Shown here: positions 16,667 through 35,329 of the stretch, one piece after another
Layout: each line of letters begins with the position of its first letter
How positions within the stretch are numbered: position 1 is the first letter of the stretch
Virus record (IMG/VR): IMGVR_UViG_3300025121_000013
Origin: a virus
Lineage: Duplodnaviria > Caudoviricetes
Reading direction: 5' to 3' (one strand)
Length of the DNA: 64,000 bases
The notes under the pieces: generated by a model
The model's input: the letters and a program-made list of their open reading frames with translations, nothing else
Told to the model about the DNA's origin: nothing
The model's database searches: none
Translations under genes and position numbers: made by a program

Positions 16667-16741
16667 TGGCAGACCCGGGAGGATTCGAACCTCCGAATGC
16701 AGGAACCAAAATCCTGTGTCTTACCGCTTGACGACGGGTCT
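16667..16741 (-). tRNA. tRNA-Gln(UUG)
   Basis: Cloverleaf; anticodon arm CAGGA-TT TTG GT-TCCTG; TTCGAAT T-loop; encoded CCA. Confidence 0.93.
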
Positions 16742-16749
16742 TTAGCGAC

Positions 16750-17370
16750 TCAATGAAATACTATATTTATCCATTCTTTAGATTCTTTAGACCATATTTT
16801 CTTTTTTTCTAAAAATATTAAAAGAATAATCAAAGCTTTTTCTATCGTATCTTCTTTAAAAGAGAAACCATTATAATCAACCATAAATTCATTTTCTAAT
16901 TTTGTAATATTAAGTTTAGAATCTGGATATTTTTCAAACATTTTAAAAAGTTGTTCTTTATGTGGAATCCATATGGTATCTTTGATATGACTACCCTCAT
17001 AACCTAAAACATAATCACCTTTTTTAGGAATCCAAAAACTTTGGACTTCTTCAGTACTACATAAATTTATAAACTCATTTGAAAAATCCATAGACTTTTG
17101 ACCCTTTTACTTCTCTTTCCTTTTATTTTTTTGAATCGTCTCTAAAGTTAAAAAAGTTGTAATCCATTTTGAATCATCTTTTTTTTGAATACAAAAAGGA
17201 ATCCAACCATTTTTAATAAATAAATTTTTTATATCTTTGTATTTCAATTCCATATTCATTGTTGGTTGAATTGTGAATGGAGTTCTTGGCCAAATATAAA
17301 TTTTTCCTTTAATCCACGCTTTTATAAAATGAATTAAAAATAAAATTTTCTTCAAATTATATAAGACCAA
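16750..17370 (-). CDS. Two hypothetical ORFs (16750-17091, 17107-17370)
   Basis: Co-oriented with the block; the first has a W.P..EQL motif typical of YopX-like phage proteins. Confidence 0.55.
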
Positions 17371-17578
17371 AACATAATTTCATTTCTATCAAATTCATTT
17401 GTCCCATCTGTGAAATATATCCCATTCCAATATACAATTCTATAATATGGTTTATCAAATTTTTTAATTTTTACAATTAGCTCAGATTCATCTGTTGGCA
17501 TATTCTCAACATCAGACCTAAATCTCATTCTTCAAAAACCTCCTTGAAAATCTTTTATAATTGAAACATTATTTTGTC

Positions 17579-17653
17579 TGGCTCCGGGAGGAGGGATCGA
17601 ACCTCCGACTGTCACATTAACAGTGTGATGCTCTTCCGCTGAGCTATCCCGGA
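17579..17653 (-). tRNA. tRNA-Asn(GUU)
   Basis: TCACA-CT GTT AA-TGTGA; encoded CCA. Confidence 0.93.
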
Positions 17654-17746
17654 GAGTTTGAGGGGCTATAGAAATTAGGCGACGTTTAAGCACAGAGTAT
17701 ATGAATTTTCTCGAAAGTCATTTCTTTCTCCTAGTTTTTTAGTTTT

Positions 17747-17822
17747 TGGTGGAAGCAAAGAGATTTGAACTCTTATCTTTCGCCTTGCAAAAGCGATGCT
17801 TTCCCTATTAAGCTATGCCCCC
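17747..17822 (-). tRNA. tRNA-Ala(UGC)
   Basis: TCGCT-TT TGC AA-GGCGA; G3:U70; A73; encoded CCA. Confidence 0.9.
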
Positions 17823-18082: not shown

Positions 18083-18466
18083 TTATAATAATTTTAAATT
18101 CTTTGTTATTTTATCAATATCTTCAGATTTAGCTGGCCCAATAGCAATACATGTTTCTGTTGGAATTCCATGAAATTCTGTTAAGCCTGCATCAATTATT
18201 AAAGATGCTGGAAACCCGTTATCCAAAGCTTTTTGATATATCTCTAATAATTCTTCTTTTGAATTGACTTGCAAACAAATTTTTGTAAAAAGTCCATTTA
18301 ACCATTCTGAAATGTTTTCATCCAATTCTAATGTCCAATTGTCATTATTTATTTTTGACATTTTATCTAATAAAATTTTCATTGACGCATGTGCGCCTTG
18401 AGCGATCATTTTTCCTTTTCTCATATTTAAATCTGTTCTCATTAATATAACTTGTTTAACCTTCAT
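18083..18466 (-). CDS. pth2: Peptidyl-tRNA hydrolase, Pth2 family
   Basis: KQVIL.R.DL.M..GK..AQ.AHA, KICL.V.S..EL, DAGLTE and T..AIGP....ID.IT..LKLL. Confidence 0.92.
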   Translation of the reverse strand: MKVKQVILMRTDLNMRKGKMIAQGAHASMKILLDKMSKINNDNWTLELDENISEWLNGLFTKICLQVNSKEELLEIYQKALDNGFPASLIIDAGLTEFHGIPTETCIAIGPAKSEDIDKITKNLKLL

Positions 18467-19220
18467 ATTTTTCTTTCATTTCTTTTAAAAGTTCTAATTC
18501 ATTGGCTATTTTTTCTATTTGAATCACCTTCATTGATGGCAAAACTATACAAGATAATTTCCCACCCATATCTAAATATGCGGCTCCGGTATCTATACCA
18601 ATTTTTCCATATTTAACATAAATGTCAGATATATATTTTCCTTCAAAAAATGGTGTATGTCCAAACACAATTGTTTTACCAAAATTTGAAAAATCTTTAT
18701 ATAAAAATAAATCTCGAATCCAAAGGATTTCAGTGTAAAATGGTTTTTCAGCACTGGGATCTATTGTGGTTACAATTTCTTCTAAATCAAGATCTTCAAA
18801 TTTAGGATTTGGATTTTTTACCATATTAATTCCGCCATGAATAAAGAAATAATTTTCAGTTACATAAAACTTTTTAAGTTTATTTTTAATAAATTCAATG
18901 TGTTCATCAGGAATTTTATGGTTATAACTTTTAATAGTTTGATATCCGCCATTATATATAAACACTCCTTCATCAATACCCATCATATAATTATTAAACA
19001 TTTCTTCATGATTTCCCATCAAAGGAATGACAGAATTGGGATATTTTGAAACTAGACTTATAATATAAGAAATAACTTTATTCGAGTCTGGGCCTCGATC
19101 AATATAATCTCCGATAAAAATCAATTGATCTTTTTCATAATCAATTTCTTTTTCTATTTTTGCCATCAAAGATATTAACATATCATATTGACCATGTATA
19201 TCTCCGATTACATAGTACAT
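18456..19220 (-). CDS. Ser/Thr protein phosphatase (PPP, lambda-phosphatase-like)
   Basis: GDIHG, GDYIDRG, GNHE, HGG, FGHTP and IDTG. Confidence 0.9.
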   Translation of the reverse strand: MYYVIGDIHGQYDMLISLMAKIEKEIDYEKDQLIFIGDYIDRGPDSNKVISYIISLVSKYPNSVIPLMGNHEEMFNNYMMGIDEGVFIYNGGYQTIKSYNHKIPDEHIEFIKNKLKKFYVTENYFFIHGGINMVKNPNPKFEDLDLEEIVTTIDPSAEKPFYTEILWIRDLFLYKDFSNFGKTIVFGHTPFFEGKYISDIYVKYGKIGIDTGAAYLDMGGKLSCIVLPSMKVIQIEKIANELELLKEMKEKYEG

Positions 19221-19692: not shown

Positions 19693-20649
19693 CTACTTCA
19701 AAGGAACCTCATATTTGATCCAAGAAACTTTTTCAGGGTCTTCCACCTCTTGCCAAGCTGGGTGGGATGCCCTATCTTCTTTAATTTCTTCGAGATTCTC
19801 AATGATTGCATTCTTTAGAGCAATTAGATCTGCTGCTCTTTTTCCTTTATAATTCCATACAAACAGTTCATTTTGAACAGACAAACAGGGAAGCCCAAAC
19901 AGTCCCAAATTTTTGTAAGAGACTTTTGTCGGAATATAAAAATTTCCCAGTCTTTGAATATCAGAAGGATCAAAAGCTGCAAGGTTAAACATTTTTCCAT
20001 CGAGTTTTTCTACCCACGAAAGAGGTTTTCCACCCATAGCCAAAAAGGCGACAACCTCATTGTTTTGGAGTTTTGAAATTCCCTCTTCAGGTTTGAAAAC
20101 CTCAATAGCGTCAATGCTTAGCTGAAGACGTTCATTTATAATTGTCGAAGTGGGAAGTGCGCTTCCAAGAACCGCCACTTTCTTTCCACGGAGATCTCTC
20201 ATGTCTACAATGATTTGCCTTTGTTCTTTCGAGGATCCATAACCAAGGAACCCTTCAGAACCTTCCTTCAAAAGAATTCCATTTCTAAGAACAATAATGT
20301 GCATTGTATTTGCATGAAGTGACATGAGAGACCTAATATTTTTTGTTACCATTGAATCGGTTCTTTGAACAATATCAATGGTATCGGACTGTGCAAGACC
20401 AACGTCTGCATTTCTTCGAAGAATATTTAGAATATTATCAAATCCACCTGTCGTATTTGAATTCTCGCATAAATTAGGATAATAAGCGGAAATATTTTTA
20501 AACATCTTTGCATATGTATTTTGAGGATTTCCAGTCGAAAAAATCAAATAATTATCGGGGCATGTTTCTGATGGCTCAGTGGCGAAGCAATAAAAAGGAT
20601 TAATCAAAAAAGAGATTAGGATGAGAAAACCCAGAACCCAACGTTTCAT
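19693..20649 (-). CDS. Secreted TAXI-family (TRAP-type) solute-binding-like protein
   Basis: Signal peptide; STG....TY, TTGG.DN, AD.GLAQSD, L...H.N..HIIV and DLRGKKVA. Confidence 0.7.
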   Translation of the reverse strand: MKRWVLGFLILISFLINPFYCFATEPSETCPDNYLIFSTGNPQNTYAKMFKNISAYYPNLCENSNTTGGFDNILNILRRNADVGLAQSDTIDIVQRTDSMVTKNIRSLMSLHANTMHIIVLRNGILLKEGSEGFLGYGSSKEQRQIIVDMRDLRGKKVAVLGSALPTSTIINERLQLSIDAIEVFKPEEGISKLQNNEVVAFLAMGGKPLSWVEKLDGKMFNLAAFDPSDIQRLGNFYIPTKVSYKNLGLFGLPCLSVQNELFVWNYKGKRAADLIALKNAIIENLEEIKEDRASHPAWQEVEDPEKVSWIKYEVPLK

Positions 20650-22052: not shown

Positions 22053-22142
22053 TGGTGCCGAGGACGGGAGTCGAACCCGTACAGGGATTTCTCCACCGAG
22101 GGATTTTAAGTCCCTTGCGTCTACCAGTTCCGCCACCCCGGC
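22053..22142 (-). tRNA. tRNA-Leu(UAA)
   Basis: AGGGA-CT TAA AA-TCCCT; long variable arm; encoded CCA; no intron. Confidence 0.93.
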
Positions 22143-22161: not shown

Positions 22162-23493
22162 TTAACAGATTGAATTGAAAAAGGTTTTATCTATATGTTT
22201 AGGGCCAAAAGATAATATTTTGATAGGAACTTCAGTTTCTTCTCTTATAAATCTAAAAAATTTACTTTCCCATCCCCTTCCTTGAAAAGTTTCATAAGAG
22301 GGTTTAACAAAAGGTAAATATTTTGTAAGAAAGTTCTCTTCTGAAAGATCATATATTTCATTAGATTGAATATATTCGAAAAACAATTTATCTATATTTT
22401 TTAGTTCATCAAAAACATAATTTGTACAAACCTTTATTTTATCCATTTTATTAAGAAGATCAATATGGGTCAAAGCAATTCCATCTAAACCATTCGAAAT
22501 ATTTAAAGAATATTTCAAAGCAACTAAATCTAAATGTCCAATTCTAAATTTTCCCTGCCATCCATTATTTACATTATGTTTATCAAAAAATCTTAGAGAT
22601 TCATCTTCTGTAATTAATGGGCCATTACCATGTCTTGTGGTAAAAATTCTTGAAATGCCAATCATTTGAATATTTTCAATATCTTTAAAATCTATCGGAT
22701 TAATGGCAACATGTCTTTTTGTTACATATGGCAAGACCCCATATCTTGGGTCAAGAAGATTTCCTTGGGAGCTCTCAAAGATTATAACATCATTTGAAAT
22801 TTCATCGAGCTTTTCAAAAGGAAGATTATGAACATGACTTTCAATATATACTTTAAATTTTTTATATTCAGAATGTAAAAATTTAATATATTTTTTATTT
22901 ATAAAAGTACTAATAATTTTATCTTCTCGTATTGAAGAAGGAAATTCATCTAACAATTCATTTAAAATAAAATTGATTTTATCAAGCAAATATTTATCAG
23001 GTTTAAATAAATCAATGACTTTCAAAGTTGGGATATTTTTTTGTTTAGACCTTACATATTCTCCAACTCCAGCACCGCATGTGCTAAATTTTTTAACCCT
23101 ATCATATTCTCTTTTTCTGCCGAATAAAACATGAAAAGGAAGAATCAATTCACAATTTTCATGGATATCTATTCTTTCCCAAATATTTCTCGTTTTTGTA
23201 TTTAATACTTTCGCTTCTTCCATCATAGTCAAAGGGTCAAAAACCATATCTTCTGAATAAACGGTATTTGACTTTAAGTTTGATAAAGAATTGGAACCGA
23301 AGTGACTAAAACAATGATGAATATTTTTATTTATAACATTATGAGCGGCTTGATGTGCTCCATTAAATCGAATAGCTGTTGAAGGCCCAAACTTATGTCC
23401 AAGGGCATCAATAATACTTCCTTTTCCTTCATCTCCATAATTTAAGCCGAAAATCAAAAAACATTTTTTTCCTTTAAATATTTTATTATTCAT
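22162..23493 (-). CDS. Divergent adenylosuccinate synthetase-family ligase
   Basis: YGDEGKG, RFNGAHQAAHN, FESSQG.LLD, PYVT, TTRHG.GP, THID and SFGP; Asp-binding loop replaced by NNGWQGKFR. Confidence 0.85.
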   Translation of the reverse strand: MNNKIFKGKKCFLIFGLNYGDEGKGSIIDALGHKFGPSTAIRFNGAHQAAHNVINKNIHHCFSHFGSNSLSNLKSNTVYSEDMVFDPLTMMEEAKVLNTKTRNIWERIDIHENCELILPFHVLFGRKREYDRVKKFSTCGAGVGEYVRSKQKNIPTLKVIDLFKPDKYLLDKINFILNELLDEFPSSIREDKIISTFINKKYIKFLHSEYKKFKVYIESHVHNLPFEKLDEISNDVIIFESSQGNLLDPRYGVLPYVTKRHVAINPIDFKDIENIQMIGISRIFTTRHGNGPLITEDESLRFFDKHNVNNGWQGKFRIGHLDLVALKYSLNISNGLDGIALTHIDLLNKMDKIKVCTNYVFDELKNIDKLFFEYIQSNEIYDLSEENFLTKYLPFVKPSYETFQGRGWESKFFRFIREETEVPIKILSFGPKHIDKTFFNSIC

Positions 23494-24394
23494 TTTTATA
23501 TTCAGGATTGAAAGGATATATATAGTTTGGAGTGATTACCGCTTTATGAGATATTTCATCCCCCAAAAGAAAATTTTTATAACCAAGAGATTTCATAAAT
23601 TTTATATCCATAAAATTAGCCATATTATTTGGTTCTACATCTAAAGGAAGGTCTGTCGCTAAAATAGCTTCAGGATCCTTTTTAATAATAAAGTCTAAAT
23701 AAAGGGTGAAGAAATTTATATCATTTAATGAATTTATAAATAAATCTTGCCTCGCTGCCATCAAATTACATTTTAAATCAGAAAGATTTTTAGGGCTTAT
23801 GGTTGTCAAAAGACGAAGCCCTTCCATTGATTCGATTTTTAATATAAGATTAGATTCTGGATAAAGATCTCTTATTATCTGCAGATCTTCATATTTTTCA
23901 AAAAAGGAAATCATAAAATTCTGACAAGAAAACTCTTTACAAGCCTTAATAAATTCTAAATCTTCATTAGTTAAAAACCCGTCAACCTTTAAATTTTTTC
24001 CAATGATATTAACTGATTGCCCTTTTCCTACAGCATACCTCGGAATAGGGTCAACAAAAATTTTATTTCCAACTATTGATTTAATTTCACTTGGTTCAGA
24101 AGAACCTCTGAAATATATTGTAGCGGGGAGATCAACTTTTACATTATGATTTAATAATATATCTCCATATTTTGGAAACGCCCATTCAAGAATTCTTAAT
24201 TGCCTTCCTTTAAGATCAACCCATAAATTTTTATCAAATCTTATGCATTCTCGTGTCAAAAATTCTATTGTTTTAAAAGGAGTTAGATCCGAAGTACATC
24301 CGGTATTATATCTAACATTTTTAATTTTTTCATTTTTTAAAATATCATAAAGAATTTTTGTTTGATATATTGGAGGTAAAGTACAATATAGCAA
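23486..24394 (-). CDS. Pyruvate kinase-like protein (A and B domains only)
   Basis: YCTLPP, RYN, VDLKGRQLR, LKIES.EG, MAARQDL, ATD and LLGDE parallel the PK barrel motifs; no C domain. Confidence 0.75.
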   Translation of the reverse strand: MLYCTLPPIYQTKILYDILKNEKIKNVRYNTGCTSDLTPFKTIEFLTRECIRFDKNLWVDLKGRQLRILEWAFPKYGDILLNHNVKVDLPATIYFRGSSEPSEIKSIVGNKIFVDPIPRYAVGKGQSVNIIGKNLKVDGFLTNEDLEFIKACKEFSCQNFMISFFEKYEDLQIIRDLYPESNLILKIESMEGLRLLTTISPKNLSDLKCNLMAARQDLFINSLNDINFFTLYLDFIIKKDPEAILATDLPLDVEPNNMANFMDIKFMKSLGYKNFLLGDEISHKAVITPNYIYPFNPEYKNE

Positions 24395-24395
24395 T

Positions 24396-25361
24396 TTATA
24401 ATTTTCTTATAGAACTTTTTCTAGAAATATTTGATTGTTCAGGAAGTTTATTTATAGGAACCGAGGGAACTAATGATCTACAAAATTCTCCAAGACTATT
24501 AGAAACATTTTCAATTCTTTCATTTGTTTGTTTTCTATTTTTCATATCATCAATATAACTTGACATATCTCTTGAATTATAAGCCATGGCTATAATTCCC
24601 AAAATAATATCGATCACAGATTTTTCTTCTTTTAGAAGAATAATATTTTGAGAAGGAAGCATTGCTTTCCAAGAGCGAATAATACTTTCTTCAAAATCAA
24701 ATCCCTGATATTTATTTAACAAAACAAAAACATTATTTTTAAATTTTTTCATAAGTTTCGTAAATATTGTTTTTGAGGGGATTTCATTGTTAAGGGTAAT
24801 ATTTAAGATTGATGAACTTATTCTATTTGTTAAATATGAATATGGACTTTCATCAGCGAGAAAGAAAAAGAATGGAAATACATCTTTATGGGTTAATTTA
24901 CATTTTTCATTAAAGTACTCAGCAGCCAATTCATAAGTTTCCGTTTGTTGCCCACCACCACTTCCCTCTAGATATAATTTTTCAATCCATTTTTCATTTT
25001 CAATTCCATAAGCAAAATCAGAAATTTGTAAAGGGGCTGAATCACAATATGCATCTCCAACTGCGGAGAAGGAAAGTTCAAATTCATCTTTTGGCAAATA
25101 ACCTTGTTGTTCAATTTGTCCATGTAACATTGGGGCCTTGTCATAAAATACCTTTGCAAAATTTATATTTGATCCCGTAACGTCAAGCATCAATACAATT
25201 GGATGTTTAGCCGAACATACAATATTTCTTTTTGGGTCTAAATCTTTATGTAATTCCTCAGATTTAAAAATTGTATTGGAAACTGTTGAGGCCATACCAC
25301 TGCCAAAATTGGAAGATGACCTACTGCCATAGACAGGTCTGTCATATGATGAGCCGCCCAT
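24396..25361 (-). CDS. vWA domain protein
   Basis: LDVTGS MIDAS, AVGDAY.D..PLQ, LEG.GGG...E.YELA and FF.ADE. Confidence 0.8.
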   Translation of the reverse strand: MGGSSYDRPVYGSRSSSNFGSGMASTVSNTIFKSEELHKDLDPKRNIVCSAKHPIVLMLDVTGSNINFAKVFYDKAPMLHGQIEQQGYLPKDEFELSFSAVGDAYCDSAPLQISDFAYGIENEKWIEKLYLEGSGGGQQTETYELAAEYFNEKCKLTHKDVFPFFFFLADESPYSYLTNRISSSILNITLNNEIPSKTIFTKLMKKFKNNVFVLLNKYQGFDFEESIIRSWKAMLPSQNIILLKEEKSVIDIILGIIAMAYNSRDMSSYIDDMKNRKQTNERIENVSNSLGEFCRSLVPSVPINKLPEQSNISRKSSIRKL

Positions 25362-25362
25362 T

Positions 25363-26454
25363 TCATATTCCCTTCCCTGGAACTTTATCTAAGAAATCTC
25401 TAAAACGATCTGGTCCAAAATATTTGGTTCTAATTTTTTCTAATTTTTCCCATTCTTGAAAACAATCATCAGATCTTTTTTTAGGATTTGACTCAACCAT
25501 TTTTTGAATTAGAGAATCAAAATCTGGATAATCTTTTATATTTTTTTGATAATTATTTTCATTGTTTCCTGACAACAAATATATCATAGATTTTCCTATT
25601 GAGAATAAATCAGTTCTTGGATGGGGTGAAAGGTCTTTAGTTATTTCTGGAGCTGAAAAATCATTTAATAAACTATATTTTGCATCATTTGAATTAGCAT
25701 CTTGGATCGCTCCGCAAAAATCAATTATGGTTACGTTATGATTATAATGGGTTACAATTAAATTTGAAGGTTCAATGAGGCCATGAATAATTAATTTTGA
25801 ATGTAAATTACCACAGGCTGATAAAATTCTTTCAAGTATCCATACAGCATTCGAAACAGAAATTCCTTCAGTATAAAAATTTTGTAAAGTACAAAAATCA
25901 AACCCCTCAATATATTTAGTTACATTGGCTAAAGAATCATCTGAAAATTTAAAATGATCTAAATAAACAGGAAATGACAATGGGTTTAAATTTTTTTGAA
26001 TATGTATTAACATTTCTTTTTCATGTAAAATTAAATCATTGGAATCTTTTGAAACCTTCATACAAACTTTTATTTTTGCTCCGGTGTGATATTCTCGATC
26101 ACATAAATAAATATTTGAGAAATCTCCTTCTATCATATGTTTTAAAATATGATAAGTTTTATCATTTATTTTAAATATACTTTCATTTTTATCCATTCGT
26201 TTAAAAGGAATATTATTATCGAGACAAAAAAGTACAAGGTCTTTTAATTCAGTTAAATGTCTAAATGCTTCATTTGACAATTCTTGTTCTTTACTTGTCA
26301 TAGGATTACATTTATCTGGATGGAGAATAAACAAAAATGATCGATAGCACGAAATAATTTCTTTTTTGCCTTGATAAAGTATCCCACCAAAAAGATCTTT
26401 TGGATCAATGATTTTTAAAATTTTTTCACAAAAATCTTTTTGTTCTTGATCCAA
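25363..26454 (-). CDS. J-domain fused to a Ser/Thr kinase-like domain (pseudokinase)
   Basis: YR.....LHPDK J motif; MKVS, HEKE, HGLIEPSN (HRD Asp absent), IDF, APE and DLFSIG. Confidence 0.75.
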   Translation of the reverse strand: MDQEQKDFCEKILKIIDPKDLFGGILYQGKKEIISCYRSFLFILHPDKCNPMTSKEQELSNEAFRHLTELKDLVLFCLDNNIPFKRMDKNESIFKINDKTYHILKHMIEGDFSNIYLCDREYHTGAKIKVCMKVSKDSNDLILHEKEMLIHIQKNLNPLSFPVYLDHFKFSDDSLANVTKYIEGFDFCTLQNFYTEGISVSNAVWILERILSACGNLHSKLIIHGLIEPSNLIVTHYNHNVTIIDFCGAIQDANSNDAKYSLLNDFSAPEITKDLSPHPRTDLFSIGKSMIYLLSGNNENNYQKNIKDYPDFDSLIQKMVESNPKKRSDDCFQEWEKLEKIRTKYFGPDRFRDFLDKVPGKGI

Positions 26455-26457
26455 GTC

Positions 26458-27768
26458 TTATATCTTCTCCTTCCAAAATAGATTCAAGGCTAAAGTTGAA
26501 CATCTCTCTTGAAATTGTGCTCCGGTATCTCCATCTCCATCTTGAACTATTTTATTTATTTCATCAGGAAAATCAGAAAGGATTCTTTCAGCGATTTCTA
26601 ATCTACATTTTTCATCAAGAATTGTTAAATGAATAATTCTATCTATTCTTCCGGGCCTTATTGTCATTTTTCCATTTGAGACTTTTGAAGCGATTGCGTC
26701 ATCTAAATGATCTATATTATTTGTAGTTATGAAAGTTAAAATTCCATTTGAATTATAAATTCCATCTATGCAATTTAATAGACAATCAAATGAAAGAGGT
26801 TTTTTTAACATGTCTTGTTTTGATATATTTTCTCTTTTTTTGAACGTTGCGTCAATATCTTCAAAAAGTGCAATACAAGGAGAATTAGAAAGCATTTCAT
26901 TCCAATTTGTTATAAGCTCTTCATTTGATAAAGTTGATAAATCAAAAGACCAAATGGGAAAATCAAATTCTTGCCCAAGAGAACGAACTAAAGATGTTTT
27001 TCCTGTTCCGGGCAAACCATATAATAATATTCCTCTTTTCCAAGGAATTCCTTTTTCTTTAAACCAATCTCTACTTTCTTTCCATGTTTTTATTTCGTTA
27101 ATAATATTTTTTATTTCTTCAGGAAACGCCAAATTTTTTATTGGTGTATTATGAATTGAAGAAGTTATATCATCGAGATCAAAATTAAGTATTCTTTTTG
27201 ATCTAAAAAAATATGAATCTTGTGAAAAATCTATATTATTTTGATTCGGTTGAGAACGCTCAATTGAAGGAGATTTCCCCATTACTCTGGTTACAAAAAA
27301 CCTTTGAGGAAAATTGCCCGCATTGTCATTAAATTCTTTTACTATTTCAGAAATAAATTTATCTGGATCTAAAGTTCCCCTTAAAAAAGTTATAGTAAAA
27401 GAAATGTTATATTCTTCATTTCTAATATGTTTTTGTACTCCATTTATAAATAAAATTTTAAATCCATTTCTAAATATTAAATTAGGAGCATTAATTTTTT
27501 GATAAGAAACGAGAACATTTCTATCTTTTGATTTAGAAAATGTGAAAACAGAATTATAAGTTTTATTTAAGATTTTTAAAGGCTTATAATTTTTTAGTAT
27601 ATTTGAGATTGCTAAATCTATTAAATTATTATTTTCAATTTTTACTGTCACAAAAATTAAACTAAATAAATGTTGAAGAATGGTTTTCACTTTTTCCCAA
27701 AATGCTGCAATGAAGCCGGCTGCGGCACCTCCCAATAAGATAGAACTTCCTGAAAGATTTTCTAGCAT
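26458..27768 (-). CDS. BCS1-like AAA+ ATPase with N-terminal membrane anchor
   Basis: WKRGILLYG.PGTGKTS, FEDID, LLN.IDG, TTN..D.LD.A and RPGRID. Confidence 0.85.
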   Translation of the reverse strand: MLENLSGSSILLGGAAAGFIAAFWEKVKTILQHLFSLIFVTVKIENNNLIDLAISNILKNYKPLKILNKTYNSVFTFSKSKDRNVLVSYQKINAPNLIFRNGFKILFINGVQKHIRNEEYNISFTITFLRGTLDPDKFISEIVKEFNDNAGNFPQRFFVTRVMGKSPSIERSQPNQNNIDFSQDSYFFRSKRILNFDLDDITSSIHNTPIKNLAFPEEIKNIINEIKTWKESRDWFKEKGIPWKRGILLYGLPGTGKTSLVRSLGQEFDFPIWSFDLSTLSNEELITNWNEMLSNSPCIALFEDIDATFKKRENISKQDMLKKPLSFDCLLNCIDGIYNSNGILTFITTNNIDHLDDAIASKVSNGKMTIRPGRIDRIIHLTILDEKCRLEIAERILSDFPDEINKIVQDGDGDTGAQFQERCSTLALNLFWKEKI

Positions 27769-27792
27769 CTTTTCTCCTTAACCTGGTCTGGA

Positions 27793-27828
27793 GGGGCCCC
27801 TCATGAGAAAAGTCTCACAAGGGGCCCC
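27793..27828 (-). promoter_or_regulatory. GC-rich hairpin upstream of the AAA operon
   Basis: GGGGCCCCT..TGAGA/TCTCA..AGGGGCCCC. Confidence 0.5.
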
Positions 27829-27995
27829 ATACAATTCAACGGAAAAACAAACTAATAATTCCATCTAAAATATCTGGTTCTTTTATGAGAAGAATGAAAC
27901 AGAAAAACGAAATCCAAGATATAGTTCTAAAAAATAAATATTTTGTCATTTTAATCCTTTCTATGGATTTATCTCATTCTTTATAATTTTTAGAC

Positions 27996-28661
27996 TTAAA
28001 ACATTCTTTCAAATTCTTCATAACTTTTATCAAATAATAAAAAACATGCTTTATCAATTTCGGAAATATTTTTATCAAAACGAGGAATTGAAGGAAGGAT
28101 CTTATTTTCTTCTAAATTTTTAAAATCTATTAAATTATTCAAAAACTTTTTTCTAATGCTATCCAATAAAATATCAAAACAAATTTTTGTTATTTTAGTT
28201 CCAAGAATTACTAACAAGTCTTCAAAATCTTGAGTATTTTTCTCTATTTTATTTAAGGACGCTTCAATATTTTTCTTATATTCGTCCAATGCTTTATCAA
28301 AAATAATACTTTCATTTTCATCAATTTTATAATCTAATTCTTTTACAACGTTTTTAGCAAATTCTAACCATCCACCATTTATACGTTTTTGTTTATGTAA
28401 TTTTATTTGTTTATCTTCAATATCATTATACTTTTGGAAAATTGCACAAAATTCTTCAATTGTTCTCCTTAGAGAATCTCTCATTGACAGTGATGCAAAT
28501 TTATTTCCATAAATAAATTGAATTTTTTTGATTGAAAATTCACAATTAAACTTATCTAATTCTGAATCTGTTATATTTAAGGAATCAAAAAAAGAACTTA
28601 TATCTATTTCAATAAAATGACTCGTAAAAAATTTTGAGATAGAATCCGAAAATAATTTCAT
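27996..28661 (-). CDS. Hypothetical helical protein
   Basis: ATGA overlap with the upstream TelA-like gene. Confidence 0.6.
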   Translation of the reverse strand: MKLFSDSISKFFTSHFIEIDISSFFDSLNITDSELDKFNCEFSIKKIQFIYGNKFASLSMRDSLRRTIEEFCAIFQKYNDIEDKQIKLHKQKRINGGWLEFAKNVVKELDYKIDENESIIFDKALDEYKKNIEASLNKIEKNTQDFEDLLVILGTKITKICFDILLDSIRKKFLNNLIDFKNLEENKILPSIPRFDKNISEIDKACFLLFDKSYEEFERMF

Positions 28662-29656
28662 TCAATAAATCTTGTATCAGATGTGCTTCCCATTAATTTA
28701 GGTAATTCTTTTCTTAACCGAGCATCTTCCGCAATAACTTTATTTGCGGTTTCGATACATTTTGCTCTTCCGTTTTCGACAGCAGCTTTTACCCCTTCCA
28801 GAAGTTTTATTGTGGATATTGAAACTTGTCCAATTGTTTCAGGAAATATATCCGGAGACGATACCATTTCAGTGACTCTTTTTGTATCCGATGCGATTGT
28901 TTGGCTGCATTGAACGACAAGAGAATTTAATCCATTTCTAACCGAAGTGACTTTCTCACTTGTTAAAGCGTTTCCTAATTGCATGATATATGTGGATAAT
29001 TCGGTTTTAATTAGAACATTTAATTGAGGATAGGTATTTTCGATAAAATCTAAGAGAAGTTCAATTTCTGTTATTTGCCCTCCTAGATGAATAATATTAT
29101 TTTTAAAAATAAAAAGAAATGAATCAATATTTACAAGAGTTTTCTTCAACTTATCTAACATTTTTGAATTATCATTTATATTATTTTCAATATTATCTGA
29201 TTTATTATTTTGGACGTTTTCAATTTCTTTTGATATATCTTTTCTTAAAATATTCAATTCTGAAACTATCTGTTCTGCTTTTGACCCATAACTATAACAA
29301 GTTTCCATTTTAGCTTTAAGTTTGATAGCGTCTTCATCAAATGATTTTTTGATATCTTCCAAAACATCGCTGACCATTTTTCTATCAGTTATTTTTGAAA
29401 CAATGGAACGTTTTGTTTTTTGATAAAATTTATCTATAAATGAAGGAAGAAATTTCGTTTTTTGATCCTTGAGGTTTTCAATGCAGGAATTCATTCTTTC
29501 TATTGTATTTTTCATGTCTTCTAAATCAGCCATATTTGTATTGGCTAAAATTCCATCACTAATTTTTGTCGCCTCTTGAAAAATTACAGAAATTCTTTCT
29601 TTGACTGAAGTATATGCATCGTTGGGGCGAACATAAGAAGAAAGCTGACCCGGCAT
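28658..29656 (-). CDS. TelA-like (toxic anion resistance family) coiled-coil protein
   Basis: Length and helical pattern; C-terminal P.I..ET......L...V....NG..K resembles TelA. Confidence 0.55.
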   Translation of the reverse strand: MPGQLSSYVRPNDAYTSVKERISVIFQEATKISDGILANTNMADLEDMKNTIERMNSCIENLKDQKTKFLPSFIDKFYQKTKRSIVSKITDRKMVSDVLEDIKKSFDEDAIKLKAKMETCYSYGSKAEQIVSELNILRKDISKEIENVQNNKSDNIENNINDNSKMLDKLKKTLVNIDSFLFIFKNNIIHLGGQITEIELLLDFIENTYPQLNVLIKTELSTYIMQLGNALTSEKVTSVRNGLNSLVVQCSQTIASDTKRVTEMVSSPDIFPETIGQVSISTIKLLEGVKAAVENGRAKCIETANKVIAEDARLRKELPKLMGSTSDTRFIE

Positions 29657-29672
29657 GTTTAGTTTCTCTTTC

Positions 29673-30509
29673 TTATGAGATATTCAGTATTTCTAATTCA
29701 TCTTTTCCTGCATGTCAAGAACAACATTCAGGAAAATCTACAATAAATTCTCCATCAGATGAACGTTCTTTAATATATCCAATGCTTTCTGGTGTGACAC
29801 TTCCCCAACTGTATCTTGGGGTAATTCCTTTTTTGACTTTTACGGCTGTTCCTTTATCTAAATAAAATCCTAAACATTGAAAACAATGTTCTATAAATCC
29901 ATCTGAATAATATTTTGTATTTACATAAATTTTTTCTCCATCTTTGAACTTAATTAATATATCCATATGTAATTGACCTAAAAAATGCAATAATAATTTA
30001 TAACACAGATTTGAAATATTAGCCCCTAAAATGTTTAATAAGTTTTTTGTTTCTTTTATGTTTTCAGATAATTTATCAACAATAATACCATAATTATTTT
30101 CAACATCTAAATAAGATTTTTGAAATAATTTTTTATCATCTTTTTCTTTTTCATTAATCATATCTGAGCCGATTAATATTTCTAATTTTTCTGTCATGTC
30201 ATTGATTACTTTTAAAGTAATTTTTGTTTTTCCTATATATTCACATAAATCATCTTGTTCTTTTTGTAGTTTTGTAAATGTTGAATATATCCTTAAAAAC
30301 TCATTGCAACTTTTTAAAATATCTGTTTTATAAATTTCACCTTGATATTTTTTCTGACTTAACAATTGTTTTATTTGCTCTATTGAAAAATCTGAATTAA
30401 ATTTTTTTATAGTATCCGTATCAATTGATTTGAAAAAATCTAATGATTCTCCATCTAATTTATTTTTCTTTTTAAATATTTTCTTATAAAAAGGTGTGTT
30501 AACTGACAT
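29673..30509 (-). CDS. Coiled-coil protein with a C-terminal HERC2/KEG-like SH3 repeat, interrupted by TGA at 29715-29717
   Basis: VKVKKG.TPRYSWGSVT.ESIG.I......IVDFPE, then TGA-H-A-G-K-D-E-L-E-I before TAA at 29673. Confidence 0.55.
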
Positions 30510-31089: not shown

Positions 31090-31166
31090 TGGTCAGGGCG
31101 AGAGGATTTGAACCTCCGACATCCAGCTCCCAAAGCTGGCGCGCTACCAGACTGCGCTACGCCCTG
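31090..31166 (-). tRNA. tRNA-Pro(UGG)
   Basis: CCAGC-TT TGG GA-GCTGG; encoded CCA. Confidence 0.93.
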
Positions 31167-31174
31167 ACTTGAAA

Positions 31175-31474
31175 CTATTTACTTAGAGACTTTATTTTCG
31201 ATTCTTTCCATTCAAAAAGTTTTTCACCACTTTCACTTTGAAGACAGAAGAAATACATTGGGCCGTTAGACCATGGAGTACATTGAACTATTTCTTTTAT
31301 AATTATGCCAGTTTTTGTTTTATATTGTTTTAGACATGGACACCATCCCATATCATTCTCAGTTGGTTGATTATAAATTGTTCCTATTGGGGTTCCTTTT
31401 TTATCTAAATTACAGTTTGTTTTTAACCATTCCTTTGCTTTTTTAGTCAACCCAACTTCCTGGTATGATCTCAT
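31175..31474 (-). CDS. Hypothetical protein
   Basis: AAGGAG RBS; fills the gap between two tRNAs. Confidence 0.65.
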   Translation of the reverse strand: MRSYQEVGLTKKAKEWLKTNCNLDKKGTPIGTIYNQPTENDMGWCPCLKQYKTKTGIIIKEIVQCTPWSNGPMYFFCLQSESGEKLFEWKESKIKSLSK

Positions 31475-31558
31475 GAAACTCCTTGGAGAGGGATTGGATT
31501 GAATGGATTGATTGTGAGATTAGAAATTTACAAAGATGACATGAAAATTAAAAATATT

Positions 31559-31854
31559 TGGCGCGCTCGGAAAGATTCGAACTTTCGACCTACAGCTTCA
31601 TACCACTACGGCTTTCACCGCCAATTAGAAATTGTTTGTGGTCTGGACTTTGCCTTTACCATGCGCAAATATTGCGTTTAGGTACCCCCCGTCAAGTCTC
31701 TACACCTTCCCAAAAATCTTGGGCTTGGCTCGGCGTTACCATCGACTTTACGTTAAGGATTCACCGAGTTTGAGGGAATTCGACATTGAGTTTCCTCAAT
31801 GAAGTCCAATAGTTACATAGAAGGCTGTTGCTCTATCCGCTGAGCTACGAGCGC
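31559..31854 (-). tRNA. tRNA-Arg(UCU) split by a group I intron (exon 1 31819-31854, exon 2 31559-31598)
   Basis: Spliced exons give a 76-nt cloverleaf: GCGCTCG acceptor, ACAGC-CT TCT|AA-GCTGT, TTCGAAT T-loop, G-CCA. Confidence 0.92.
31599..31818 (-). mobile_element. Group I intron (IC3-like, 220 nt, no ORF) inserted after U36
   Basis: 5' exon ends in U and intron ends in G; core strings CAAACTCGGTGAATCCT, GGTAACGCCGAGCCAAG, GAAGGTGTAGAGACTTGACGG and GGTAAAGGCAAAGTCCAG. Confidence 0.9.
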
Positions 31855-31895
31855 GTGATTTATTCTTTATTTTATCACTTTAATAATTTTCTCTC

Positions 31896-33614
31896 CTAAG
31901 AAATTAATTCTTGTTCAATTTCTCTGACCAATCTCAAAAGATTATTTTTTCGGGTAATAGAAGTATTATATTCCCACAATATACCTCTAGTGCTTACTAA
32001 TGCATGAATTGTCGCTAATTCATCATTTGAGGTAAAAGTCCAAATCCAATTTCGATGAGAATAATTTTTTGTCGTATATTGTTTTCCAAATTTGTTTTTA
32101 AAATATTCTTTATTTTTTAAATCTTTTACCCTCTCATGATATTTTTTAATGAAATCGATGTTATTATAGAAAAAACATTCTCTTAAAACATTACTTAAGG
32201 GATCGGTATTATTCTCATCATATGTAACTAAGTTGATTTTCATATAATATTTTCCTTTCAAAGCGGATTTAAAAAACATAAATATTTTTTATCTTGTTCT
32301 TTCGGAATTTCAAAAGTTTTATCTTCATCTAAATAAAATGTCTCAGTTAATCCCACTGTAAATAAAAGACAATCTTTTGTTCTAGTACATGTTTTTATAT
32401 ATCCGTTTCTAAATTTATTAGCCAACCCATAAGATTCTGAACAAAAAATAATTTTTCGACCTTGTATCGATTTTCCCATATCCAATTCTTTTAGGACATC
32501 TGGATGGATATTATCAAAATGATAATGCCACGGAACCCATTTAATAATAACTAAATCTAAAAGAGGTAACATGTATTGATAATTTCCATTAAGAGGGAAA
32601 CAAAAAATTAACCCTTGTTCTTTTAATCTTTTTCCCACTTTTGAACATAAAGGACAAAATAATGTTTCACTCGCAGCTTCTTTTATAAATTCTTGTCTAC
32701 AAGATGCACAATATATTTTTTCTTCCATTTATTTTGACCCCAGAATTTTAGAAGAAGGATTTAATTTTTATTTTAGTTCTATGTATTTTTTCCAGTCACT
32801 ATTATATATTTGAAAAAGTGGTCTCTTACGTATAGTAATTAATTTATCTTTTAAAAATTTATTATATTCAATTGGAAGCAATTTATAAACATAAAATGTT
32901 GATAAAAATAAATCAAAAAATAAATATGCATTATTTATATTTAAAACAAGTCGTTGATCATTTTTATTAAGATGATAAATGATTTTACATTTTTTACAAA
33001 TCATTGTTAAAAGGCTAGTATCATAGTCATCTATAATCTCTAAAAATTGATTTGGACAAAATATACATTTTATCTCTGAAAAATGAGATGAAATATTAGC
33101 TTTTAAAAAATTTTTAGTATTGATACATAAATTATCACAAGAAGGATTTAAAATACATGACGGGCAAGGAAACATATTCTTTTCCTTTCTTTAAAATATT
33201 TTAAAAAATTAATAATTTTCTTTATGTGAACTTCTGGACAGCTGAAGCCGCCAGTCTTCTTCAGACTACAGCTCAATAAAAATTTTAATGTACTGGTTTT
33301 TTAGTTTCAACAAAAGGACAAAATTCTTTCATTTCACGATCCCCACAAAATTCTATATCGTTAATAATCTCAGAAATATCAAAATAACCTTTTTTAAATT
33401 GTTCAGAAAAAGTTTTAAAACATTTTTTAGTATCATGCTTTACGTCAAAACAAAAAGCAATTTCTCCACTAACATCCTGTTGCCAATTATCATCTGAATA
33501 AATTAATGTAAATCCTATTAAAGGATCAATTTCGGCTATAATGCAGGTTTCTATTAAAATATCTTTACTTTGAATCTTGATAACTTTCCCCTTTAATTCT
33601 TTTAAGTCTTCCAT
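31896..33614 (-). CDS. Four hypothetical ORFs (31896-32279, 32258-32728, 32768-33175, and the 33285 ORF with probable start near 33614)
   Basis: Co-oriented; several carry CxxC motifs. Confidence 0.55.
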
Positions 33615-33635
33615 AAGAATCCCTTCTTTTTGAAA

Positions 33636-33711
33636 TGGTGGGCCCACCTGGGTTCGAACCAGGGACCGACCGGTTATGAGCCGGTGGCTCTACCATCTGA
33701 GCTATGGGCCC
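33636..33711 (-). tRNA. tRNA with CAU anticodon, probably tRNA-Ile2 (lysidine type) rather than Met
   Basis: ACCGG-CT CAT AA-CCGGT; paired G1-C72, so not an initiator; body resembles bacterial Ile2 tRNAs. Confidence 0.85.
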
Positions 33712-33726
33712 AAAAAATAGTTTAAG

Positions 33727-35210
33727 TTATTTTTGATTTAATTTATTTTTGATTCTTATGAATAATTCTTTTTGAGTCGCTGAGTCTTTTTCACATTTTG
33801 AAATGATCGCCCCATCCACTACTAAAAACCAATGTTCATCATTTTTTAATATCGTTGCCTCAAAATCACTTTCATTTTTGATTGGGACTCTAACTTTTTT
33901 TCCGTTCAATAATTCATTAAATTTTTCAGTTGGATGATTATCTGAATAATTAATATTTTTTGAAAAATTTTCTAGCGACCTCATACAATTTTTATAAAAT
34001 GAATAAGCATTTCTAATCATTTCAGGATCATTAAGATCAATCAACATCTTAAAAAATTTTTCAACAGTAAAGTTATTGGGAATCGGTCCTTTTTCCTCTG
34101 TCATTTTTTCGTTCCTTTCGTCTCTTTAACCTTTAATTCATTTTTTCCTTTTATTATAATATCTCCTATATTTTTCACAGCTCATTACACAATCGTCTTC
34201 AAGTTCACAGCCATCACAGGGATGGTTTGTTTTAGAATTATTTTTATTCTCAATAGCAATACACTTTTCGTGTCTTAGAGTGCCTTTTTTAAAATCAAGT
34301 TCTAACCCGATCTTTCCGCCCAATTCTTCAGAAAATAATCGGCATTGATATGTTCTGCCCATATTTGAAACGACTAATTGAGGACATTTCACACCACATA
34401 ATTCTTTATTGAAAGGATTGATTGGAACGTAGACATACTTGAGATTTTTCAGATCATCTTCCATATGATAATCTCCCTTTTTGAAGTACCCAGGGCCCTA
34501 TAGTCTGAGAGGCCGGAATGACCCTATAGAGCCCTGGGACTTGTAACTAGCCCGTTTGCCGTGGTGTTGTCGTCTGAATCGGTTTAATTCGGAGGGGAAC
34601 GAGCCATGTTGGCTCCTTTCAGAAAGAGTTAAAATAATTCCTTAAAGGTCGTATATATAATTTCTCAGGGTCGATTCATCTTGAAGATTTGAATTCAAAC
34701 CCTGAGAAAAATCACTTAGTTTCAAACTCCAATCGACACTCAATTCGATTAAGCATTTTATATTCTCTTCTTTTGATTTTTAAAATTTTTCTGGCTTTTG
34801 GCTCTTGACACCATTCTGAAATATAAAATGTTCGTCCTGTATAATTAGAGAAACATATGACTCTGGCGGATTGATTTGATATTGGTAGATTCTTTTTCTT
34901 AGCCAATATCATACTCCTTTCATTGATTTTGATAATTGGAGATTGTGAATGAGATGCCTTTTTCCACTAGCCACAATATATCAGTGAGGAGACAATCAAT
35001 TATATAATGCGGAATGATAATTAATTCGGGACCTTGATTTTTTTGAATTTCCTCGGGAGATTGTTCTCGAAAAGAAAGGTCAATTATTTTTAAATTATCA
35101 TTGAGAAATTTAGATACGGAATCAATGAGGGTTCTAAAACCAATTGATTCATAATCACTATAATCGAATCGAACCTCAACCTTTTCATCAGAAATCTTGG
35201 AAACCTTCAT
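33727..35210 (-). CDS. Four hypothetical ORFs (33727-34104, 34138-34464, 34712-34912, 34920-35210)
   Basis: AAGGA/GGAG RBSs; co-oriented. Confidence 0.55.
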
Positions 35211-35240
35211 GGAACGACCCTTTCCATTCTTAACATATTG

Positions 35241-35329
35241 TGGTGCGGAGGGGAGGATTCGAACCTCCAGTGTTTCCTATGTGCCTGATTTACAGTCAGG
35301 TGCCTTCAACCAGTTCGGCGCACCTCCGC
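35241..35329 (-). tRNA. tRNA-Tyr(GUA)
   Basis: CCTGA-CT GTA AA-TCAGG; long variable arm; encoded CCA. Confidence 0.92.

Follow-up and report, generated by a model that had tools for sequence, protein, structure and literature searches.

Two described branches of the PF00709 protein family come closest to the enzyme considered here. One is the adenylosuccinate synthetase PurA (EC 6.3.4.4), with structures from E. coli (1ADE, 1CG0) and H. pylori (6ZXQ, 8QWA); the other is PurZ (with PurZ0), the 2-aminoadenylosuccinate synthetase of Z-DNA phages, which uses aspartate and travels with DatZ, MazZ, DutZ and DpoZ. A 2026 survey of phage PF00709 proteins found that Asp13 had given way to Ser in every one of the 147 phage PurZ sequences (100%), and the remaining phage homologs served only as outgroup (PMC12884076). 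The subject of this analysis is a phage homolog outside PurZ, a PurA-like ligase encoded in a stretch of 64,000 nt (the window, i.e. the whole stretch of DNA that was analysed), which is part of the IMG/VR record IMGVR_UViG_3300025121_000013 (139 kb, about 45% complete). Its gene closes a five-gene operon, the core of which is a widespread, mobile and undescribed module of a J-domain pseudokinase, a von Willebrand factor A (vWA) protein with a metal-ion-dependent adhesion site (MIDAS), and the ligase itself. The cassette was described nowhere in the literature searched on PurA-like or adenylosuccinate genes in connection with vWA, kinase, phage or mycobacteriophage, and the clade of the ligase appears unstudied in that literature, because the phage survey used the homologs other than PurZ only as outgroup.

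The ligase gene (22162..23493, minus strand) encodes 443 residues, of which 14-433 match PF00709 with 198 bits, so that the PurA fold is present at full length. The protein nevertheless stays below the cut-offs of the purA equivalogs (NF002223, 169 against 402 bits; TIGR00184, 148 against 395.6 bits), in line with the claim of an earlier note, made from the sequence by eye, that it is not PurA proper; with the PurZ model NF038379 it scores 32.9 against a cut-off of 300 bits. An alignment to E. coli PurA, whose residue numbering is used throughout, bore out the motif changes listed in that note. The P-loop GDEGKG with Asp13 and the AAH motif with the catalytic His41 are kept, and the enzyme had thus rightly been set apart from PurZ with its Ser13; Lys16, Thr239, the guanine-specifying Asp333 and Ser414 are kept as well. 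The motif IGTTG has become FSTCG (Thr129 to Cys), FEGAQG has become FESSQG (Gln224 kept), TRVG has become TRHG (Val273 to His), TKLD has become THID (Asp333 kept), and Asn38 is Gln. The aspartate loop GATTGRRRR is replaced by NNGWQG-KFR, in which Arg303 is deleted and Arg305 is Phe. The aspartate-pocket positions T300, T301, R303, R305 and V273 therefore hold Trp, Gln, a gap, Phe and His, respectively. His at position 273, the missing Arg303, Phe at position 305 and the loss of Arg143 come on top of the changes named in the note.

The roles of these positions were assigned from the contact table of the H. pylori adenylosuccinate synthetase (PMC11571797, Table 3). In that enzyme the 5'-phosphate of inosine monophosphate (IMP) is gripped by Arg135*, Thr230, Asn37 and Thr121 (R143', T239, N38 and T129 in E. 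coli), the ribose is contacted by Val264 and Arg294 (V273 and R303), the aspartate site is lined by Arg294 and Arg296 (R303 and R305), and Asp12 (D13) touches N1 of the base (PMC11571797). On this assignment the base-activating and guanosine triphosphate (GTP)-binding residues have been kept, and the enzyme is left without the aspartate site and with little of the phosphate clamp: among the phosphate ligands Thr239 is kept, Asn38 is Gln, Thr129 is Cys and Arg143 of the second subunit is not conserved. As the P-loop, Asp13, His41, Gln224, Thr239, Asp333 and Ser414 are all retained, GTP-dependent phosphorylation of a ring oxygen probably persists in the PurA-like enzyme. A nucleophile other than aspartate is strongly indicated by the replaced pocket, as the earlier note had suggested when it proposed a different amine donor.

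The same signature is found far beyond the window. The closest PurA-like relatives are 30-37% identical and carry the same motifs, and of 185 sequences kept after filtering at no more than 62% identity, 146 have His273 and 39 are canonical. Asp13, His41, Gln224 and His273 occur in all 146 sequences of the former group, and Asp333 in 142 of them. Position 38 is Gln in 145 and position 129 is Cys in 124; position 300 is Trp, Tyr or Phe in 137, position 301 is Gln in 141, Arg303 falls in a gap in 146/146, and position 305 is hydrophobic (Phe, Leu or Met) across the clade. Of the four side-chain ligands of the IMP 5'-phosphate, three have thus been changed (Asn38 to Gln, Thr129 to Cys, loss of R143'), whereas the 39 canonical sequences keep the textbook residues. 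In a FastTree phylogeny the His273 label takes only two changes. Because the signature is shared by 146 non-redundant relatives, the altered pocket reads as a property of the whole clade and not as phage decay, and the clade, judged by its residues, is neither housekeeping PurA nor PurZ.

Carriers of the clade include huge phages, about 200 cultured mycobacteriophages, cells of the Candidate Phyla Radiation (CPR) and DPANN, and actinomycetes; the module moves among phages and numerous bacterial phyla. In four free-living carriers (Plantactinospora, Actinomadura, Streptomyces and a metagenome-assembled genome of the Verrucomicrobiaceae) a canonical PurA of 587-612 bits is found next to a paralog of 190-236 bits, and one Saccharibacteria genome has the paralog alone, without a canonical PurA. 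In RefSeq phage records (NC_067270, phage I3; NC_031080, phage Tonenili) and in phrog_1211, genes of the His273 clade are labelled '2-aminooxy adenylosuccinate synthetase', a name of the PurZ type. The label looks like a propagated mis-annotation, since the genes that bear it keep Asp13 and have no aspartate loop.

Among cultured phages, about 200 cluster C1 mycobacteriophages carry the same trio with its gene order unchanged (the Bxz1 gp248 region; gp270, gp271 and gp273 of I3), and gp273 of I3 is a member of the His273 clade. The mycobacteriophage version has a gene of 112 codons between the vWA and PurA-like genes and is without the pyruvate kinase-like and AAA ATPase genes of the window; its genes have been annotated by similarity alone (Ser/Thr kinase, hypothetical protein, 'PurA-like adenylosuccinate synthetase'), and no experimental work on the trio was found in the literature searched. 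Two further variants were seen. A short phage subtype (14 phage loci, L129-L168) has a PurA-like protein of 355-390 residues with the loop [VI]R[YF]SGGxQAG and no kinase; a conserved helical protein of about 115-125 residues, without a Pfam match, is encoded directly upstream of its vWA gene (e.g. L134:5782-6120). The closest vWA, pyruvate kinase-like and PurA-like genes are found on L171, a 180-kb phage-like contig (JGI 3300038466), whose pyruvate kinase-like protein is 51% identical; this contig also carries a radical SAM enzyme, an RNA ligase of the T4 Rnl2 type and a vWA protein of the Ro60 type, and a kinase gene is absent from the position immediately upstream.

The constant partner of the PurA-like enzyme is the vWA protein. 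With the clade alignment as query, some 160-165 loci were retrieved from collections of genomes and of viruses, and their six-frame open reading frames (ORFs) were searched with the five proteins of the window operon. The vWA family was matched in 101 loci, the kinase-fold family in 65, the pyruvate kinase-like family in 10 and the AAA ATPase only in the window phage. In nearly every clade locus with enough flanking sequence the vWA gene lies within 7 kb of the PurA-like gene, nearly always upstream on the same strand, directly adjacent in most loci and often overlapping. None of these four families was found at canonical purA loci, apart from two short fragments of the kinase fold at a distance of over 5 kb, and an all-against-all clustering of 87 non-redundant loci gave no further family present in more than 15 of them. 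The window shows the module in full: a PurA-like gene of the His273/WQG type, a Met-Gly vWA gene just upstream on the same strand and, as is usual, a J-domain pseudokinase gene before it, with the gene of the mini pyruvate kinase (mini-PK) inserted between the vWA and PurA-like genes.

The vWA gene (24396..25361, minus strand) encodes 321 residues. Sequence profiles of the family gave no match in the PDB and Pfam vWA models matched none of 44 members, so the fold was settled by the AlphaFold2 (AF2) model (pLDDT 86), for which Foldseek returned integrin beta-I and vWF A domains as the best matches (prob 1.0). The MIDAS motif is D60-x-T62-G-S64 (DxTGS). A tail of about 30 residues, predicted to be disordered, precedes the domain and begins in the family with Met-Gly-Gly-Ser-Ser-Tyr. 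Met1-Gly2 is invariant in 44/44 aligned partners, a start codon followed by a Gly codon opens the vWA gene in 91 paired loci, and among 150 cluster representatives whose genes were called independently and which share no more than 50% identity, 141 begin with Met-Gly. The N-terminal consensus is MG[GSY][GS]x[WYF][SD], with an aromatic residue at position 6 in 134/141. The family is large (2,810 cluster representatives at E 1e-3; 2,077 at E 1e-10). Prediction of a complex between the PurA-like enzyme and its vWA partner, each entered as an alignment and with GDP and Mg added, gave a score of 0.00, which counts neither for nor against an interaction.

The kinase-fold protein (25363..26454, minus strand; Pfam Pkinase 54.5 bits, DnaJ 14.4 bits) carries a J domain, and the HPD motif of that domain is present in 47/72 relatives, the window copy included. 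In the family the beta3 Lys is kept in 47/64, the alphaC Glu in 53/64 and the DFG Asp in 46/62, and the HRD Asp in only 3/62. Because this catalytic aspartate is absent, the protein is by its motifs a pseudokinase. The first gene of the operon (26458..27768, minus strand; 436 residues; Pfam AAA 63 bits) encodes an AAA ATPase that belongs to the classical FtsH/CDC48/BCS1-type clade and has a hydrophobic N-terminus and an unassigned N-terminal half (phrog_7485), and is an addition specific to the window phage among the roughly 165 loci. The vWA fold, the kinase fold and the AAA ATPase bear out the earlier observation that the ligase shares its operon with vWA and kinase-like genes and not with genes of the purine pathway.

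A vWA protein and a kinase fold tied to a biosynthetic enzyme of nucleotide type recall the TerY-P triad (TerY vWA, Ser/Thr kinase and PP2C), and a weak TelA-like gene lies upstream in the window. According to Anantharaman et al. in 2012, Ter/TelA stress systems reportedly include the predicted synthesis of nucleoside-like metabolites. Such systems have been described in jumbo phages (PMC7824862). In contrast to the triad, the vWA protein of the window has no TerY match in PADLOC, the kinase is dead (HRD Asp absent) and carries a J domain, and no PP2C is encoded in the operon; the enzymes are PurA-like and pyruvate kinase-like instead of a phosphoribosyltransferase, ATP-grasp, HpcH or HAD protein.

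The gene that overlaps the ligase gene (23486..24394, minus strand; 302 residues, TTG start) had been taken in the earlier note for a pyruvate kinase barrel without the allosteric C domain, and this identification holds. The Pfam and NCBIfam pyruvate kinase models give 20.9 and 32 bits (cut-offs 30 and 432), and a profile built from 37 mini-PK relatives matches E. coli PykF with an E-value of 2e-15 over PykF residues 8-76 and 133-318. The top 50 PDB matches that Foldseek returned for the AF2 model (pLDDT 88.6) are all pyruvate kinases (TMq 0.61-0.73, E ~1e-14). Compared with pyruvate kinase (EC 2.7.1.40; PF00224), mini-PK keeps the TIM barrel of the A domain, the ligands of phosphoenolpyruvate (PEP), Mg and K, and the catalytic Lys, Glu and Asp; its invariant residues R28, N30, D60, K62, R67, K186, E188 and D217 correspond to R32, N34, D66, K68, R73, K220, E222 and D246 of PykF. 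It differs in its length of about 300 instead of 470-530 residues, in the absence of the C domain, in a B lid shorter than that of PykF, and in the position of PykF T278, which is a near-invariant Ser in the 37 family members. The change of GD to QD that had been noted is real in the window copy and peculiar to it, and does not extend to the family, whose consensus is ARDDL.

The mini-PK family comprises 327 proteins, nearly all of about 300 residues and many from CPR and DPANN metagenome-assembled genomes. In 8/8 other contexts that were opened the gene adjoins a PurA-like gene of the His273 clade, so that within these contexts the family is found only in the PurA-like cassette and not in glycolytic contexts. 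Conversely, it is present in 10 of about 100 module loci, and on the PurA-like tree the loci that have it group together (4 changes, where shuffled labels need 9.7 on average) and are the nearest relatives of the window ligase. Mini-PK is thus a dedicated accessory of one subclade and not a constant partner, and the idea that ligase and pyruvate kinase form the functional pair gives way to the vWA protein in that role. Since the mini-PK carriers are the nearest PurA-like relatives, the cassette of the window is a mini-PK subtype common to phage and ultra-small cells. As GDP is released in the PurA reaction and pyruvate kinases use PEP to phosphorylate nucleoside diphosphates (NDPs), local regeneration of GTP is the simplest role for mini-PK, which most probably turns GDP back into GTP with PEP.

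A further lead comes from the neighbours of the module in other genomes. A Pfam-confirmed NrtR, a repressor that senses ADP-ribose (Nudix domain plus NrtR winged helix), is encoded beside the module in Streptosporangium, in Streptomyces and on two phage contigs, and a NadM-Nudix protein (Pfam) in another phage. ORFs of the Nudix/NrtR type occur within 7 kb in 15/87 clade loci, against 0/58 canonical purA loci. On five contigs of the CPR type the cassette stands in one gene string with a NadE-NMNAT fusion, NadA, NadB, a PRK-type nucleoside kinase, phosphoribosyl pyrophosphate synthetase or NrtR, the NAD synthetase of these strings being glutamine-dependent and fused to an NMNAT domain. That the ligase itself is an NAD synthetase was set aside, as these CPR operons already encode NadE. 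A direct route from ADP-ribose and nicotinamide back to NAD+, by phosphorylation at the anomeric position, is chemically conceivable; it needs a binding mode unlike that of PurA and has no specific support.

Phages are known to reconstitute NAD+ by the NARP1 (Adps and Namat) and NARP2 (NAMPT and NMNAT) pathways. The present module resembles these in being phage-borne and in the linkage of its relatives to genes and regulators of NAD and ADP-ribose metabolism, and a role under NAD+ depletion is plausible. Unlike NARP, it has no homology to any NARP enzyme, and neither NAMPT nor NMNAT nor a Nudix protein is found in the 139 kb of the phage.

Taken together, we give a slight preference to a general reading in which the ligase is an active, retooled, GTP-driven enzyme that operates in a complex with the vWA protein and the pseudokinase and has a role in NAD+/ADP-ribose stress. 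The ligase would O-phosphorylate a ring of the 6-oxopurine type with GTP, whereupon a nitrogen nucleophile would displace the phosphate; the conserved core (D13, K16, H41, Q224, D333), with which PurA binds GTP, takes the proton off a lactam N-H and phosphorylates the oxygen, speaks for an enzyme that is active and still transfers phosphate to a ring oxygen of the lactam type. The nucleophile would not be aspartate and, since the new pocket is aromatic and uncharged (W/Y/F, Q, F, H), would do without the carboxylates of that amino acid. The altered phosphate clamp suggests that the ring is carried on a handle other than plain ribose 5'-phosphate. That the enzyme is so strictly linked to a MIDAS vWA protein and to a dead, nucleotide-binding J-domain kinase points to a regulated complex, in which the ligase would work with, or on, its vWA partner and the pseudokinase would be a nucleotide-binding regulator that recruits DnaK. 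Mini-PK would recycle GDP to GTP from PEP and so drive the ligase in an energy-poor cell. Finally, the NrtR and NAD-operon context suggests a role when NAD+ is consumed and ADP-ribose rises, which for the phage would mean coping with NAD+-depleting host immunity.

Several points weigh against this preferred reading. Substrate, nucleophile and product are all deduced from residues; the retained Gln224 and Asp13 suggest a purine-like ring, short of proof. The recycling of GDP by mini-PK follows from the chemistry of pyruvate kinases, and the acceptor could be another one. The scheme also leaves the near-invariant Met-Gly and the MIDAS ligand of the vWA protein unexplained. NrtR/Nudix adjacency is seen in only 17% of the loci, and the phage's own record has no match to NUDIX, NAPRTase or NMNAT-type (CTP_transf_like) domains in its 139 kb, at 45% completeness, so that the link to NAD rests on the relatives of the module and not on the local context.

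The conserved N-terminus of the vWA protein has a place in a more specific scheme, which we regard as improbable and which still survives best among the rivals. Here the ligase would be directed at protein and would join the activated purine nucleotide to the alpha-amine of the N-terminal Gly of the vWA protein (after removal of Met), and the N6-linked conjugate would switch the vWA/pseudokinase pair. The upstream, mostly adjacent and often overlapping vWA gene is consistent with this, as are the Met-Gly start with its aromatic residue at position 6, the predicted disorder of the tail, and a pocket that has lost just those carboxylate-binding arginines that a peptide amine would not need. Residue 3 of the partner is also weakly associated with the loop subtype of the ligase (7/13 against 4/55, Fisher p 4e-4), an association that is not corrected for phylogeny and confounded by it, as the subtype is essentially one clade. 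However, the conserved N-terminus could equally act as a degron, dock onto the pseudokinase or DnaK, or be bound as a ligand within the vWA protein itself, and the NAD-operon context is left unexplained. The fuller form of this scheme, in which a purine-N6-linked nucleotide-protein conjugate is set under ADP-ribose/NAD+ stress and fuelled in the window phage by a PEP-dependent, GTP-recycling kinase, seems just as improbable; if true, the conjugate would be a new kind of post-translational mark.

The other explanations fit the evidence less well. The proposal of the earlier note, i.e. that ligase and mini-PK make a non-canonical purine nucleotide and raise it to a triphosphate for phage DNA or signalling, now seems quite unlikely. 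The nucleophile pocket has indeed been changed, and a protein with the pyruvate kinase fold and intact catalytic residues is translationally coupled to the ligase. Yet mini-PK occurs in only about 10% of the module loci, and as pyruvate kinase acts on NDPs it would be insufficient alone to raise a monophosphate product to the triphosphate, the nucleoside monophosphate kinase step being missing. Against DNA modification in particular, no dedicated base-replacement polymerase, dATP- or dGTP-clearing hydrolase or lyase was seen within 10 kb, and none of DatZ, MazZ, DutZ, DmtZ and DpoZ is among the precomputed Pfam matches over that distance, in a phage genome that is only partly covered. The 5'-phosphate site of the ligase is itself altered, and the occurrence of the same cassette in cellular NAD operons of CPR bacteria and beside NrtR in actinomycetes points away from DNA modification.

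With similarly low probability, the operon could serve phage-borne defence or superinfection exclusion, the AAA ATPase, pseudokinase and vWA protein sensing a competing phage or stress and the ligase depleting or poisoning a nucleotide pool, as in abortive infection. In PADLOC the kinase fold matches the PD-T4-6 and MkoA models and the AAA ATPase matches IetA (50 bits); the operon has a TelA-like gene 890 bp upstream, and the mobility of the module between phages and many bacterial phyla would also suit defence. On the other hand, the ligase, mini-PK and the vWA protein are without a PADLOC match, 59/62 relatives of the kinase are catalytically dead, the CPR module is embedded in housekeeping NAD-synthesis operons and not in defence islands, and in the lytic cluster C1 mycobacteriophages, about 200 in number, the module is near-universal.

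Very improbable, finally, is an ordinary auxiliary metabolic gene, i.e. a divergent functional adenylosuccinate synthetase that boosts AMP, with mini-PK supplying ATP or GTP: the full-length PF00709 match and the database names speak for it, but all Asp-binding side chains are replaced in 146/146 clade members (T301A alone reportedly abolished Asp-supported catalysis in E. coli PurA in the hands of Gorrell et al. in 2002), the scores lie far under the equivalog cut-offs, no purB-like partner is present, and free-living carriers keep a separate canonical PurA.

In the window the five genes are minus-strand ORFs arranged head to tail (AAA ATPase, kinase-fold protein, vWA protein, mini-PK, PurA-like ligase), with intergenic gaps of 3, 1, 1 and -8 nt: the kinase-fold protein starts 3 nt past the AAA stop, the TTG start of mini-PK lies 1 nt past the vWA stop, and the mini-PK and PurA-like ORFs share 8 nt. 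Good Shine-Dalgarno sequences precede the first three genes, and none is found before the mini-PK and PurA-like starts; because both lack one, these last two genes must be translationally coupled, and the whole arrangement reads as one translationally coupled operon. The intergenic region upstream of it (27769..27995, minus strand) holds a hairpin, followed by a strong Shine-Dalgarno sequence, AAGGAG, before the AAA start. The hairpin (27793-27828) is a perfect GC-rich stem of 16 bp, formed by two GGGGCCCC palindromes around GUGAGA/UCUCAU (dG -32.6 kcal/mol, z -4.2); it sits 24 nt upstream of the AAA start, has no U-tract, and GGGGCCCC is unique to this site within a window of about 29% G+C. 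Placed at the operon's head, it may stabilise the RNA or serve in its processing. A sigma-70 scan for a promoter upstream of the operon remained at chance level. At the other end, a tRNA-Leu gene lies 19 nt past the PurA-like stop (22053-22142 region) and may be co-transcribed with the operon.

The window carries a T4-type gp23 capsid gene and seven tRNA genes, which mark its source as a huge phage, and the same proteins recur on contigs of 264-274 kb. The tRNA genes (Gln, Asn, Ala, Leu-UAA, Pro, Met and Tyr) lie among small minus-strand ORFs at 16667-17822, 22053-22142 and 31090-35329. A peptidyl-tRNA hydrolase of the Pth2 type and a Metallophos phosphoesterase are encoded 3-4 kb downstream of the operon (18083-19220 and 19693-20649, both minus strand). 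TelA is a member of Ter stress and phage-exclusion systems, and the TelA-like gene upstream of the operon (28658-29656, minus strand) encodes 332 residues that give a weak match to the TelA profile over its full length (23.5 bits, cut-off 30). On either side of it lie genes for two mutually paralogous proteins of 221 and 264 residues (region 27996-30509, minus strand). The phage also encodes a secreted protein resembling TAXI-type solute-binding proteins (P0008; TIGR02122, 45 bits, under the cut-off). The TelA-like protein, its two paralogous neighbours and P0008 are absent from the other module loci examined, and P0007 recurs in two phage loci only; none of these was counted as part of the module.

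So far the only retooled branch of PurA with a known job is PurZ, the one that rewrites phage DNA, and the His273 clade would be a second and much larger one, with a new nucleophile pocket. The label '2-aminooxy adenylosuccinate synthetase' that its members currently bear is misleading. The cluster C1 mycobacteriophages offer an immediate genetic test bed for the module. Because the module lies beside NrtR and in NAD operons, it is a candidate for a part in the contest over NAD+ between phages and bacterial immunity, and in the NAD metabolism of ultra-small bacteria.

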